This document shows, piece after piece, positions 33,819 to 53,493 of a stretch of DNA of 64,000 nt. Every line of letters starts with the position of its first letter. Positions within the stretch are counted from its first letter, which is position 1. The stretch lies in the IMG/VR virus record IMGVR_UViG_3300022745_000020, positions 83,903 to 147,902 of that record. One strand, given 5' to 3'. The position numbers were made by a program, and so were the translations under genes. Source of the DNA: a virus. The notes beneath the pieces were generated by a model. The model did no database searches and was not told the DNA's origin. It saw only the letters and a program-made list of their open reading frames with translations.

Positions 33819-34586
33819 TTACCAACGAGCCCACTCAGGCTTATTGTCCTCAGTGAACTGCCACCCCAGAGCTTGGAAGAGCTCGATGCCTTGAGAGCGA
33901 ATGCTCTCCGTAGCGATATTGCGCACAGCGGGCTTGAGCACACCCTTGAAGTGCGCGGGCTTCAATTGCATCGCTTGGATCTCTCGATCACTCTCCAGAG
34001 TGGGAGAGTAGTACTTCTTAGCGAATTCAATACCGCTGTGCTGCACCCAATCAAACGTGACCACATGCTTGATGGTGCGATTCCACACACCTGCGATATT
34101 GACATCCTCAGTAGCACCACGCAGACTAAAGCACGTGTTCATGCGAGGATTCTTCAGTGCACTCTCGAGCGCTTGCTGGTAGGGGCCTTCTGGCTTGACC
34201 TTGGCCATGATGGTTATCTGGGGACTGCCATCGGGCTTTTTAACGCCATCGAAGTCTAACCAGAGCTCAGCGAAGTGGTGAGAGATGCGAGTCTCCTCGA
34301 TCATCATAAATCGCTCCGTATACGACTCCATCGACTGCCCAGGCAGAGGTTTGGGATGCCCGCATTCACCCGACAGAGTACTGGCCTTGACACGGCGCAT
34401 GAACAGGCTATTCGATTCGAACAGGTCCCGTGCTGCTTTATCAGCAGTGTAGTACTCACCCACGCTATTGACTGCATCGAGTGCACCGACGGGGTGAGTG
34501 TAGTAGCCGTCAGCATCGACGGGGAGTTCCCCCTTCTTATTGACGGGGAGGGTGGTGCAGGTAAACGAGATGGTGTTGTTGCTCAT
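33819..34586 (-). CDS. head maturation (prohead) serine protease (phiKZ gp175-like)
   Basis: LSGECGHP (His), ISHH, CFSLRG (Ser), VTFDWV (Asp): T4 gp21-type protease motifs. Confidence 0.88.
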   Translation of the reverse strand: MSNNTISFTCTTLPVNKKGELPVDADGYYTHPVGALDAVNSVGEYYTADKAARDLFESNSLFMRRVKASTLSGECGHPKPLPGQSMESYTERFMMIEETRISHHFAELWLDFDGVKKPDGSPQITIMAKVKPEGPYQQALESALKNPRMNTCFSLRGATEDVNIAGVWNRTIKHVVTFDWVQHSGIEFAKKYYSPTLESDREIQAMQLKPAHFKGVLKPAVRNIATESIRSQGIELFQALGWQFTEDNKPEWARW

Positions 34587-34704
34587 GGGGACTGCCTCTT
34601 TATAAAAGGGGGTATGTGGCTCGATGGATGGTGAGGTAGGGGTAGTATACCCCCAGTCAAATTAAACGTCTCTATACCATGTCCATGCGCCTGTATAGGG
34701 CGTA

Positions 34705-34741
34705 TTGCAGAAATATACAAGCATATATCATCACTACGAAT
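34705..34741 (+). promoter_or_regulatory. putative early promoter
   Basis: TTGCAGAAATATACAAGCATATATCATCACTACGAA; core TATATCAT at 34724-34731. Confidence 0.68.
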
Positions 34742-34798: not shown

Positions 34799-35029
34799 AT
34801 GTTCTCATCTGTTTTCAATTGGTCACTGGATCACTTCTCGATCGCGATGATCGGTGTGATCACCTTCTTGTTCACGATGTACATCGGGAGTGTGCTGATC
34901 CAAAAGTACCACTGCTGCGTCGGTGTCGATCAGCTGAACCTGGTGGACATCTACCGGAAGATCCTTCCGTTCATCGCGTTTTGCTCAGCCTGCGCTGGCA
35001 TGCTGATCGCACACCAGTGGGGATTGTAA
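34799..35029 (+). CDS. small membrane protein with two predicted TM helices
   Basis: RBS GAGG; hydrophobic FSIAMIGVITFLFTMYIGSVLI and ILPFIAFCSACAGMLIA. Confidence 0.7.
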   Translation: MFSSVFNWSLDHFSIAMIGVITFLFTMYIGSVLIQKYHCCVGVDQLNLVDIYRKILPFIAFCSACAGMLIAHQWGL

Positions 35030-35134
35030 GAAAATACCCACTGGTCGTATGTAGTAGATGGCTAAATCTACGAGACTCAAACCTCACACAAGGAGAGTGT
35101 ATGAAACACGATTCGGGCTGATCGAAGAGCTACC

Positions 35135-35274
35135 TTGATGTCACAGTAAGTGGAAATACCCTCCTCCGGTCCGGGAAGGGATCTTATACCCACTACAACT
35201 CCTAGATGACTGGAGTTTTTCGCTTACCAAAACCAGCTCTCGTATAGAAACAAACGGAACTGGCTGGACATCAA
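35135..35274 (+). ncRNA. candidate multibranched structured RNA or leader
   Basis: Nested helices TTGATGTC/GACATCAA, GTAAGTGGAA/TTTCGCTTAC, AACTCC/GGAGTT, CCCT/AGGG, CCAG/CTGG within a 290-nt gene-free gap. Confidence 0.5.
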
Positions 35275-35320
35275 AGTGCATACACACGTACATTTGAATA
35301 CCAACGAAAGGAAAATCCCA

Positions 35321-35794
35321 ATGAGCAAGACGAAAACCGCTGAAGGTCACGTGAGCGTGGCCGACATCTCCGCCAAGCTGCGCGACGAGGTCAAGGAAGT
35401 CGACGGCAAGCTGAACATCGACGGCGAACAGTACTACGTCCACGGCAACAACGAGGGGCTGAGTCGCCAGACACTCGACCACGTCGAGAACTACACCGGA
35501 CGCTACGCGGCTGCAGCTACTCTGGCCATCGGCAGCGCCGCGCACGACCTGATCGTCAACGGCGCCAGTGAGAGTGGAGTGGTCGAAGGTGCTGCCGAGA
35601 TCGGCCACAAGAGCCTGGAGGTGGTCTACAAGAAGGAACACTCCTTCACTCCCCCCGGTGGCGAAGCCCGTACCGTGCATGGTCACACCACTGTGCGAGT
35701 CGTGGACAAGCTCAAGGAAGTGCGTGCCGTTCGCAAGGAGCTGCAATCCGCAGCTGCTGCGGTGTGGGGAGCCCCCGAGGGCAACAACAGCTGA
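35321..35794 (+). CDS. hypothetical protein, codon bias suggests high expression
   Basis: 157 aa, RBS GAAAGGA, C/G-ending codons. Confidence 0.85.
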   Translation: MSKTKTAEGHVSVADISAKLRDEVKEVDGKLNIDGEQYYVHGNNEGLSRQTLDHVENYTGRYAAAATLAIGSAAHDLIVNGASESGVVEGAAEIGHKSLEVVYKKEHSFTPPGGEARTVHGHTTVRVVDKLKEVRAVRKELQSAAAAVWGAPEGNNS

Positions 35795-35823
35795 TCGAAA
35801 GATCAGTCGACAAACAGAGCATA

Positions 35824-35861
35824 CACCACCACACTGAGGATCACTCCTCAGTGTGGTGGTG
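35824..35861. terminator. bidirectional 17-bp stem hairpin
   Basis: CACCACCACACTGAGGA-tcac-TCCTCAGTGTGGTGGTG between convergent genes. Confidence 0.8.
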
Positions 35862-35890
35862 ATCATCTATCTATTTTTTTTTTCAGAATA

Positions 35891-36760
35891 TCACGAAGCG
35901 ATGACGGCTTGAGCCGCCAGAGACGCCGTCGAGCTGGCCAGGCCATTCATGTCAGGCTGGACCATATCGGCTTGGATACCCTTCAAGAAGGCACTGCGCA
36001 TCATCGGGTTGGCGTTGAGCTGGGAGATGTTGTTCATCACGGTCTGAGCCAGCAGCTCCACACCACGACCAGTCTGAGTCACGCCGGTCCATTGGATCGA
36101 GATCTCCAGATGTTCCATCCCGTTGGTGAGGTCACGCTTGCCCAGGATATCATTGGTGCCCTTTGGATACATACCAGCGGTCAGCCAGGCTTTGGAGACC
36201 TGGGTGTTGGTCGGATCGGGCTCCCAGCTCAGGATGGTCATGGAGTACATATCCAGCGTCATGGGGCCCACTGGTACACCGCTGACCGTGTTGATCATCG
36301 GAGTCTTGGTCTCCGGATCCATGATCAGATAGGTGATCCAGTCGTGCAGCATGTTCTGGAAAGGACGACCATACAGATCGACCACTGTGCACTGCGGATT
36401 GGTGCGCTCACGGGTGACGTTGGTGGGCGTCTCCAGGATCTCACCAGCCCCACCGACGGTGGACTCAGTGGTAGCCACAGTCAGGCCGCTGTTGAAGCCT
36501 TCCCAGGAGATGGCATGCAGCTCCACGAGGGACTTCAGTGCCGCCAGATAAAACTCACTGTTGGGCAGTTGCGAAAACCCCAGAGGGGCTTCCATGACCA
36601 TGTGGCGAGTGTGATTGCGCCGATACTTGGTCGAGCTGACCAGTTGCGACAGATCCACAGCGGTGCCATGCTGGCCACCGAAGCGTGGATCCAGGATGGG
36701 TTCTTGTCGACCATAGGCATAGGCCTTGTCGGTCATCAGAGCGTTGGGTAGACGAGCCAT
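35891..36760 (-). CDS. tail tube protein (phiKZ gp30-like)
   Basis: 289 aa directly downstream of the sheath; EPDP...KAWL...MYP motif; RBS AAGGAG. Confidence 0.85.
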   Translation of the reverse strand: MARLPNALMTDKAYAYGRQEPILDPRFGGQHGTAVDLSQLVSSTKYRRNHTRHMVMEAPLGFSQLPNSEFYLAALKSLVELHAISWEGFNSGLTVATTESTVGGAGEILETPTNVTRERTNPQCTVVDLYGRPFQNMLHDWITYLIMDPETKTPMINTVSGVPVGPMTLDMYSMTILSWEPDPTNTQVSKAWLTAGMYPKGTNDILGKRDLTNGMEHLEISIQWTGVTQTGRGVELLAQTVMNNISQLNANPMMRSAFLKGIQADMVQPDMNGLASSTASLAAQAVIAS

Positions 36761-36841: not shown

Positions 36842-38950
36842 TTAGGCAGCCAGATCGCTCATGCGACGACCGCGCACATCCAGGGTCATGACCGTCTTCA
36901 TGTTGTTGGCATACAGGGTGATCGGAAGCGACCAGCTGTAGCCACGCTGTGCATCGGCGTTGGTGATCTGGCACTCCGGGATGATCTTGTAGAGATCACA
37001 GAAGCGTCCGATCGTGCGTTCTTGCACGCGCTGATTCACCCGTTCGATGAACTGGGCATCGGTCAGACTGGTCTTGCCCGTGAATTCACGCCACACACGC
37101 TGACCCACCTTCTGCAGCTCTACAGCACAAGCCATGGTCAGGAAGGAGGTGAAGATAGAGGTGTCATCATCACACACCGTGTGGATGGCCGGGAAGAAGG
37201 TGTTTTGCGTGTCGTACGCTTGCACCCAGTTCAGCCCCAGAGCCCAGTCGGTGTTGCGGATGTGAGCGGGCATGAACGTGCTGTTGATGTTCTTAAACAT
37301 CGTCACACGGGTGTTGGGCCAGCTGTCCATCAGGGCAGTGGACTTCCACACACCGTTGCCAGCGCCCATCATCTTCGCAGCCATAGAGGCGACTTCGATG
37401 GTCAGGGGCAACTTACCCTTGTAGGCAGAGCCAATGAGCTCACCGTAGCGACCGACGATTGCACCACGGCGGATGCTCGTGCCGAAGTAGTCACTCTCCG
37501 GATACATCTGCAGATAGCCCAGCAGCACAGCTGCAATCGAGCTCTCCTGAGAGCGAGTAAGCTCAGGTCCGCCGACCGTATAAGTCGACAGCACCACGGC
37601 CGTGTCCTTGCGCTCAGAGATGAATTGGCACAGAGCACGCTTGGTCGTCAGCGGGAAGCCCGTGTCGTAGAGGAACGACTCGGGATACATCGCATCGTCT
37701 TGATACTTGTGATTGGGGTCGGCGTAGGCGGCCACAGCAGCACTCACTGCAGTGGCAAAAGCCGTATCATTCATCGTACCGTCAGAGCCACCGGCTGCGT
37801 AGAGGTTGGTGCTCTCGCTGGGCCAGATAGAGCCAGCCGACGCGGTATCGATCTGGAAGGTGTGATAGGGCTCACCCGTGCTGTAAGTGCCGCTGAGCAG
37901 GTTGACCAAGTACTTGGTGGCGCCCGCTACCTTGAGCTCGGAGCTCACAGCCACAGCCGCACTCTCATCGGCAAAGACCGTTTGCAGGATCTGCTCGATG
38001 TTGGCCGTGTACAGATGCATCTCCCCGAAGTCACCGAAGTTAATCGGAGCTGCGGCATTATCGATGTTACGATACGAATCCGGGAAGACCTTACCCAGGC
38101 TCACTTCGACGTTGGTGGTGGGGTCAATCGCGCCTGGCTTGAGCACGAATTCCACAAACTGATCGCCGCCTTGAGTCGATACAATCTTGGCCGTATCCTT
38201 GGAGGTGGCACGACGCGCCACAGCCAGACGGAACGGGTAAGCCCCCACCTTCTCCATGAGGGTGGAGTTGATTGCGTTGTTCGACAGGGCAGTGGGCGCC
38301 CACAGGCGCAGTGCAGCATCGTTGCCACGCTTACCGTAGCACGAAGCGCGGATCTCAGCGATCGGGTACTTGGTACCTTGCACGGGCGTGGCGTCCAGGC
38401 TCAGCAGAGTACCAGCACCAGAGCTCACTTGACCGAAATTGGCTTCATCGCTCAGGGCAGAGACGTTAGACAGGCTCCACTTGGCCAGATGACCTTGAGT
38501 CCATTGAGGAGCACCACCGGTGGTCGCTTGCACAGGCAAGCCGGTGATGGCGTCACGGGCATAGGTGCCATCGGAGTTGCGCTGATACACGGGCAGACGG
38601 CTGGCCACGATGTCCAAGCTGAGCAGCAAGTTAGAGCGAGGCCCCACATCAGCAGGCAAGATGCGCTCGATCATCTGGGCACTGCCAGCTGCCGAGAGGG
38701 TGTTGCTCAGCACGGTCTGGTGATTCGCATACTCGCTGCGCAGATCAAACGTGTCCAGGCCAAAGATATTGGTGCGCATGGCGCCCGCGACGAGTTGAGC
38801 GTCGGTGGGGCCCCATGCAGCGTAGATGTAGACCTTGGCCAGGTGGGTAGGCAGACCCACTTCATCGACCACGGGCGTGCGAGTGCTCAGGTCTTGGATA
38901 CCGCGCGCGATGACCATCGGCGCGGCGTTGACGATACGAGTAGATGCCAT
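36842..38950 (-). CDS. tail sheath protein (phiKZ gp29-like)
   Basis: 702 aa; NAAP..GIQDLS, GGSDGTM, YDTGF..TK, YPES.YFGT and C-terminal GYSW..ITLYANNMKTV. Confidence 0.9.
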   Translation of the reverse strand: MASTRIVNAAPMVIARGIQDLSTRTPVVDEVGLPTHLAKVYIYAAWGPTDAQLVAGAMRTNIFGLDTFDLRSEYANHQTVLSNTLSAAGSAQMIERILPADVGPRSNLLLSLDIVASRLPVYQRNSDGTYARDAITGLPVQATTGGAPQWTQGHLAKWSLSNVSALSDEANFGQVSSGAGTLLSLDATPVQGTKYPIAEIRASCYGKRGNDAALRLWAPTALSNNAINSTLMEKVGAYPFRLAVARRATSKDTAKIVSTQGGDQFVEFVLKPGAIDPTTNVEVSLGKVFPDSYRNIDNAAAPINFGDFGEMHLYTANIEQILQTVFADESAAVAVSSELKVAGATKYLVNLLSGTYSTGEPYHTFQIDTASAGSIWPSESTNLYAAGGSDGTMNDTAFATAVSAAVAAYADPNHKYQDDAMYPESFLYDTGFPLTTKRALCQFISERKDTAVVLSTYTVGGPELTRSQESSIAAVLLGYLQMYPESDYFGTSIRRGAIVGRYGELIGSAYKGKLPLTIEVASMAAKMMGAGNGVWKSTALMDSWPNTRVTMFKNINSTFMPAHIRNTDWALGLNWVQAYDTQNTFFPAIHTVCDDDTSIFTSFLTMACAVELQKVGQRVWREFTGKTSLTDAQFIERVNQRVQERTIGRFCDLYKIIPECQITNADAQRGYSWSLPITLYANNMKTVMTLDVRGRRMSDLAA

Positions 38951-39246
38951 GAAGGACTCCTTGTTTCGGGGACTGGAATGTGAGAAAAATAGTGTCTCAA
39001 ACGAACTGATTGCTCAGAAAAAGCCTCTTAAAGATGAAGGGGATCATTATGATTACCGCCCGTATGAGCACATGCAGAACCCTATCAATCGATTGATGTA
39101 TTTTATCACAGTGCCATATATAGATACCTCATTGATCTGACAGTCACAGGATCTCTATTTATATATGCACTACACCCGACGGATCTTATGATCACCCACT
39201 CAACCGATCTGTGGCCAGAGTCCACTTACATGGAGCACACCTCAAA

Positions 39247-53368: not shown

Positions 53369-53493
53369 TATGGCCAAACATTCGGGCAAGGGTGGTTGGT
53401 TGCTGAAGGCCCTTAGGGGATGGTCGGCGTTTTCATGCTTTTCTTCCTTTCGCTATTAATACCACGGGGACTTCGGTCCTCGTGGTCTTTTTT
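53369..53493 (+). ncRNA. candidate small RNA or attenuator carrying a tract antisense to the DNA polymerase RBS and start codon
   Basis: TATG at 53369; stem AAGGG/CCCTT; C/U tract 53430-53453 complementary to 53552-53579; cUUCGg terminator. Confidence 0.55.
53461..53493 (+). terminator. classical intrinsic terminator with cUUCGg tetraloop
   Basis: ACCACGGGGAC-TTCG-GTCCTCGTGGT-CTTTTTT. Confidence 0.85.

Follow-up and report, generated by a model that had tools for sequence, protein, structure and literature searches.

A folded, gene-free gap with a conserved six-codon minigene ahead of a possible nucleoid protein gene in a chimallin-encoding jumbo phage

The window, a stretch of 64,000 nucleotides, lies within a 148-kb virus record from an uncultured, phiKZ-like jumbo phage. 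A Pfam match to chimallin among the genome's proteins exceeds the cutoff and, on the evidence of this encoded protein, the source of the gap described here is a nucleus-forming giant phage. As listed in Table 1, a small plus-strand unit is set between the minus-strand genes for the prohead protease and the tail tube. It consists of a promoter motif, a membrane gene, a gap spanning 35030-35320, the gene at 35321 (gene X), and a terminator. The promoter motif occurs in about 10 copies in the genome, every one on the plus strand and upstream of small genes, and the copy at 34706-34732 is kept in L001, a locus from a related phage clade. In loci L004 and L005 a similar motif stands directly ahead of gene X. 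We assigned its putative role on the model of the early promoters of phiKZ and 201phi2-1 (PMC11512511). Since the gap lies between this motif and the terminator, it most likely falls within an early plus-strand transcript. Back to back with the early promoter motif, at 34666-34681 on the minus strand upstream of the protease gene, GACAT, two bases and TATAG form a motif common to the window, L001 and L003, a possible late promoter. At L004:323-344, an SD and an MKY-stop frame, possibly a chance occurrence, overlap the stop codon of the gene that precedes the gene X promoter.

Table 1. Features of the plus-strand unit and its flanks; z values compare folding energy with shuffled sequences.
Feature	Position	Strand	Remarks
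Prohead protease, phiKZ type	33819-34586	-	
Early promoter motif (virion RNA polymerase type), putative	34706..34732	+	heads membrane gene, gap and gene X
Probable membrane protein gene, hydrophobic, 76 aa	34799..35029	+	called as a gene in relatives
Hairpin across the stop codon of the membrane gene	35012..35045	+	z -3.7
Conserved block: C/A-rich run, strong SD (35090-95), mini-ORF MKHDSG (35101-35121), TGA then TC	35078..35123	+	
Multibranched folding domain, closing helix 35135-42/35267-74	35129..35279		z -2.9 (+), -5.0 (-)
Hairpin then five-T run, weakly terminator-like	35197..35221	+	
Hairpin with G-U pairs, then four T, weak reverse terminator-like	35229..35264	-	z -5.0 (-), -2.2 (+)
TATG, located precisely where the reverse-strand fold has its 5' end	35279..35282	-	4-mer; weak
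Gene X, 157 aa, PHROG 9746	35321..35794	+	PHROG E 1.3e-5
Long hairpin and T run (terminator) ending the early unit and facing the tail-tube gene	35824..35884	+	
Tail tube	35891-36760	-	
Sheath	36842-38950	-	

The 76-aa hydrophobic protein returned no Pfam match and no family. Its gene is 74% identical in DNA to that of L001, where a hairpin of different sequence occupies the equivalent stop-codon site; the spacer at the terminator is 82-85% identical to that of L001. Gene X is a candidate for a weakly HU/IHF-like DNA-binding, nucleoid-type protein. PF00216 matched 3 of 11 members of its family (best E 0.021) but not X itself, and a structure model (pLDDT 80) has an element order, helices, three strands and a helix, that resembles HU. 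IHF ranked second in a Foldseek search (E 0.044) and IHF/HU entries fell at E 0.04-0.4, which is not significant; VIA-align gave no clear fold for the protein and did not list HU/IHF. The hbs gene encodes an HU protein, and gene X may likewise be of HU type. Relatives in PHROG 9746, found close to the tail-tube gene in several jumbo phages, also look weakly HU/IHF-like, with the arm motif clearest in P0004, P0005 and P0007, and in two related jumbo phages (L020:1005-1958 and L021:1319-2395) an OmpA-domain gene lies just upstream of gene X. Strong codon bias had been ascribed to gene X; its GC3 is indeed high (0.77) but not exceptional beside the tail tube (0.73) and the upstream membrane gene (0.78). 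The gap itself is gene-free overall; the exception is a shadow ORF antisense to gene X (35141-35866), the ends of which differ in the relative.

Every helix described in the initial annotation of the gap, together with the mini-ORF, was recovered by sequence and fold checks. On the plus strand the outer helix (35135-42/35267-74) has a predicted pair probability of 0.95-0.99, and within it lie a helix with two G-U pairs (35146-56/35217-27, 0.70) and hairpins at 35159-80 (0.57), 35197-217 (0.67) and 35233-63 (0.96). A small hairpin upstream, at 35054-71, reaches 0.99. The proposed alternative pairing, 35149-53/35190-94, was also predicted (0.23), and the two plus-strand pairings are nearly isoenergetic (constrained energies of -45.6 vs -45.4 kcal/mol). 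Measured against shuffles, the plus-strand fold is weaker than that annotation suggested: the whole gap is not significantly folded on this strand (z -1.58; 16 of 200 shuffles as good), its 5' third, 35030-35130, is at chance level (z -0.3), and the core, 35130-35280, has z -2.9 on the plus strand (6 of 600 shuffles) and -5.0 on the minus strand (0 of 600).

The initial annotation had considered the plus strand and not the reverse. The core is predicted to fold better on the minus strand (p ~0.02 for the difference between strands), where one four-way fold dominates, so the folded RNA could come from either strand. Genome-wide, 38 of 1970 150-nt segments had z < -5 and 111 had z < -3 on the plus strand, placing the minus-strand core value in the top 2%. 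The top-ranked segments that could be matched were long single terminator hairpins, so a multi-helix domain is uncommon here, though not unique, and no second copy of it was found in the genome or in relatives. The 35197-35221 hairpin and its T run were not called by a terminator scan and had no counterpart in L001; the T run can alternatively pair with the SD of gene X (duplex -8.9 kcal/mol). L001 carries a minus-strand hairpin with five T at a distance from gene X similar to that of the 35229..35264 hairpin. The TATG at 35279..35282 matches the phiKZ late-promoter consensus and was not found at the equivalent position in L001.

Only one other lineage was found for comparison, a sister clade comprising L001, L008-L011, L013 and L014; L012, being 100% identical to the window, adds no information, and scans of viral, metagenome and genome collections returned no third lineage with a spacer of this type. 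Gene order is the same in the two clades, the tube genes are 86% identical and the gene X homologs 50%. The sister-clade gap measures 902-923 nt, against 290 nt in the window, and is packed with hairpins. Neighboring non-coding spacers are 67-85% identical between clades. No conserved core with covariation emerged from the two lineages available: aligned to the sister clade, the multibranched domain scores at the level of shuffled sequence, and a covariance model built on the minus-strand fold retrieved only the query across the loci tried, sister clade included, the phage's own genome and five related records.

Most 140-nt segments of the sister-clade gap fold better on the plus strand. In L001 a 16-bp stem, with no counterpart in the window, encloses the minigene, and two strain substitutions in it are G-U/Watson-Crick swaps on the plus strand that would break pairs on the minus strand; two further substitutions in the 5' part of the gap fit the minus strand better. 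The sister-clade strains are 98% identical across the gap apart from one structure-preserving change, in which one hairpin has given way to another, unrelated one on an unchanged basal stem; this identity is about that of coding genes and indicates no extra constraint. In phages at a greater distance, gene X is preceded by accessory ORFs or by folded spacers of 105-187 nt, the latter with plus-strand z of -2.1 to -4.1 in 4 of 5. The long spacer of the sister clade (L001:3078-4000; also L008:2099-3000), at 900-920 nt, non-coding and hairpin-packed, may surpass the window gap as an ncRNA candidate; it had no Rfam match beyond chance miRNA-like ones and no blastn match among phages. Within it, at L001:3463-3493, a second strong SD precedes another six-codon frame, MSPPFK, the ATG of which lies in the loop of a hairpin; this frame may be due to chance.

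The evidence of conservation, as read from the aligned sequences, sits on the minigene and not on the multibranched fold. The 35078..35123 block is identical to L001 at 32 of 46 positions (70%), comparable to the flanking genes. The sister-clade counterpart of MKHDSG is MKKYLF, with the same start, length and stop context and with codons 3-6 different; in both blocks an SD leads to an ATG and a lysine codon, after which come four codons that are free to vary and a TGA stop with TC behind it. When all SD-preceded ATG contexts of the genome, 504 in number, are compared with the sister block, that of the mini-ORF matches best (24/35, against a mean of 11.6 +/- 2.6), and it remains first when only the bases after the ATG are counted; six-codon ORFs open at 11 of the 504. 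A local alignment of the whole gap to the sister clade is by itself marginal (42 of 1000 shuffles), and the case for a minigene therefore rests on the ranked block together with synteny. What characterizes minigene or uORF leaders, an SD and a very short ORF conserved in start and length, was found in two lineages, on what is probably a shared transcript. In both clades a stable helix starts 10-11 nt past the stop codon which, from typical footprint size, would be about where a terminating ribosome ends. The distance from mini-ORF to gene X, start to start, is 220 nt in the window vs 293 nt in the sister clade, and the frame differs too. Pattern scans of IMG/VR and related genomes gave no match to the motif, and more distant relatives are without it. 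Recoding into gene X was rejected: by inspection, readthrough stops after 27 codons here and after 2 in L001, there is no slippery heptamer and no matched landing codon in the frame of gene X, which is preceded by an SD of its own and whose N-terminus is conserved.

The gap had been proposed to be a novel ncRNA or riboswitch-like leader. A structured, non-coding mRNA element ahead of gene X is plausible because the gap lies between the early promoter motif and the plus-strand terminator and its mini-ORF is kept in the sister clade; regulation by a riboswitch or attenuator is unsupported. The Rfam search suggested at the outset gave no match, at the gathering threshold for the window or at E up to 10 for the gap, and neither the fold nor the alternative pairing is conserved in the only other lineage. 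That a riboswitch or leader-peptide attenuator toggles the two plus-strand pairings to control gene X is accordingly very improbable, even though the conformers are nearly isoenergetic, the T5 hairpin and the early conformer appear first in prefix folding, and the T run could pair with the SD of gene X. There is no conserved aptamer-like core between the two lineages, and the mini-ORF holds no run of sensor codons; MKHDSG and MKKYLF share no residue after K2. Masking the mini-ORF with a ribosome left the predicted access of the gene X SD at 0.49-0.56 and the fold essentially unchanged. In chimalliviruses transcription is uncoupled from translation: a vesicle houses the transcription of early genes and the nucleus that of later ones, both separate from ribosomes (PMC12908238). 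With chimallin encoded, ribosome-coupled transcription attenuation would not be expected, and together with the lack of effect of masking this makes a riboswitch or attenuator unlikely.

Other searches were likewise negative. Blastn of both gaps against cultured phages gave chance matches only, ARAGORN detected no tRNA or tmRNA in the window or L001, and cores of hammerhead ribozymes, group I/II introns, SRP and RNase P were not found by eye or with Rfam. The gap resembles several described systems in part. The two-codon axe-txe minigene, which acts in cis to raise downstream expression (PMC8708949), has in common with it a very short upstream ORF, the translation of which, rather than the peptide, appears to matter, and a proposed protection of the mRNA; the phage frame differs in having six codons and in lying in an intercistronic spacer 200-270 nt from the next start, at a distance and in a frame that are not conserved, with a large folded domain after it. 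In Bacilli, 5' SDs or stalled ribosomes stabilize mRNA, as in the ermC, cryIIIA and atpE leaders and in hbs (PMC3997798), and what they have in common with the gap is that a highly expressed gene is preceded by a strong SD or a bound ribosome. The gap differs in being internal to a polycistronic unit, and stabilization here is putative. The UTR-derived and intergenic small RNAs of phiKZ and 201phi2-1 (PMC10914365, PMC11512511) come from the same phage group and are short, structured boundary RNAs, some of them antisense; their transcripts have been mapped and mostly lie between a promoter and a terminator close by, whereas the gap has no promoter directly ahead of the fold on the plus strand and blastn matched it to no cultured phage. 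Small mRNAs with an extended SD, rreB and rreR (PMC5711450), are also small structured RNAs with a short ORF and a strong ribosome site. In rreB a 17-nt SD and a 14-aa ORF lie on a transcript of their own, compared with an SD of 6 nt in the gap. An rreB-like mRNA was rejected, as complementarity to the 16S 3' end of at least 16 nt was not found: the best 14-nt stretch has 8 matches in the gap and 9 in L001, against a generic tail.

Our preferred, though tentative, reading is that the gap is a cis-acting leader or spacer on the early plus-strand mRNA that acts post-transcriptionally and combines a translated minigene with fast-evolving stem-loops. Host ribosomes would load on the minigene, cycle through its six codons and be released where the folded domain begins. 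Protection of the message downstream could then come from the stem-loops and the bound ribosome, or these could mark a 5' end made by processing, and the gene X mRNA would be long-lived, allowing X, a probable abundant nucleoid-type protein, to be made in quantity. The peptide would be immaterial, and the stem-loops would need only stability, free to turn over between forms of 290 nt and ~920 nt. That start, length and stop are fixed while the residues are free and one hairpin can stand in for another fits an element that relies on ribosome loading and general stability. By analogy with the SD-type 5' stabilizers (PMC3997798) and the axe-txe minigene (PMC8708949), such a role is quite possible. 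It is favored by the operon context, the first rank of the minigene block among 504, the better plus-strand folding of the sister gap, its hairpin swap and the stem substitutions tolerated on the plus strand, and the folded spacers before gene X in distant relatives. Counting against it, the window core is clearly better folded on the reverse strand, conservation comes from two lineages only, the frame and distance to gene X differ when both mattered in axe-txe, the L001 minigene stem is without a counterpart in the window, two 5' substitutions fit the minus strand, the motif is absent from more distant relatives, and SD-only stabilizers are best documented in Bacilli, to which the host may not belong.

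The reverse-strand signal could instead reflect a discrete late RNA of ~150 nt, antisense or trans-acting, running from 35279 to 35129 and folded into a four-way junction. It may continue past 35129 and take in the anti-SD (35095-35090), and its effect could be to dampen the early unit or mRNAs that bear an SD. Its z of -5.0 and single dominant fold, the G-U pairs gained by most helices on the minus strand, the position of TATG right at the 5' terminus of the closing stem, the display of the anti-SD in a loop, and the antisense and UTR-derived small RNAs of phiKZ (PMC10914365) speak for this RNA. We nevertheless consider it unlikely: the minus strand is richer in G and T, which favors G-U pairs, the strand difference reaches only p ~0.02, the sister clade folds better on the plus strand and has no TATG there, the covariance model has no homolog, and the conserved ORF length and stop are left unexplained. 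Nor is it likely that the gap is a spacer, neutral or in decay, at a site prone to insertions, its SD and ATG the stub of a lost accessory gene and its fold made up of small hairpins and weak terminators clustered by chance. Variable accessory ORFs do occur at this position in relatives, the whole gap on the plus strand is not significant, and the domain aligns like shuffled DNA; yet tblastn and tblastx found no protein remnants, strong folding z-scores occur in both clades, and a stub would have to retain identical length and stop context while its surroundings were replaced.

It is more doubtful still that the gap yields a stand-alone structured plus-strand RNA with an internal six-codon frame, cut from the early transcript to act in trans by binding ribosomes or proteins, with a short form of 290 nt and a long one of 920 nt. 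The 920-nt version is hairpin-packed, with 98% strain identity bar the structure-preserving swap, and carries the second SD and six-codon frame (MSPPFK); processed UTR-derived RNAs are moreover common in phiKZ (PMC10914365). The clades share no fold, however, strain-level identity is about that of coding genes with no extra constraint, and the SD is of ordinary length, unlike that of rreB. A variant without a described counterpart, in which a folded RNA of variable length (~300-900 nt) around a six-codon frame is released from the early operon and binds or cycles ribosomes in trans, is a long shot.

We consider the feature to be real and undescribed in the libraries searched, and best filed with uORF or minigene leaders. 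Because chimalliviruses transcribe in a vesicle or nucleus and translate outside it, classic attenuation should fail, and control would have to act on mRNA export, stability and initiation. Little is known of such cis elements in chimalliviruses, and the combination seen here, a conserved minigene and interchangeable stem-loops ahead of what may be a nucleoid protein gene, offers a concrete, testable candidate, of limited general weight with two uncultured clades so far and a fold that is not conserved. Elsewhere in the window, the spacer upstream of the tail sheath gene (38951-39210) is 81-84% identical to that of L001, more than nearby coding genes, and is a candidate conserved leader or late promoter region. 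At 53413-53450 on the minus strand, an SD and a short frame that also starts with MK (MKTPTIP, 7 codons) lie in a structured gap before the DNA polymerase gene. Outside the window, the same genome has two more gene-free, hairpin-rich regions of 350-500 nt, at G000:C1:3398-3754 and C1:12980-13480.
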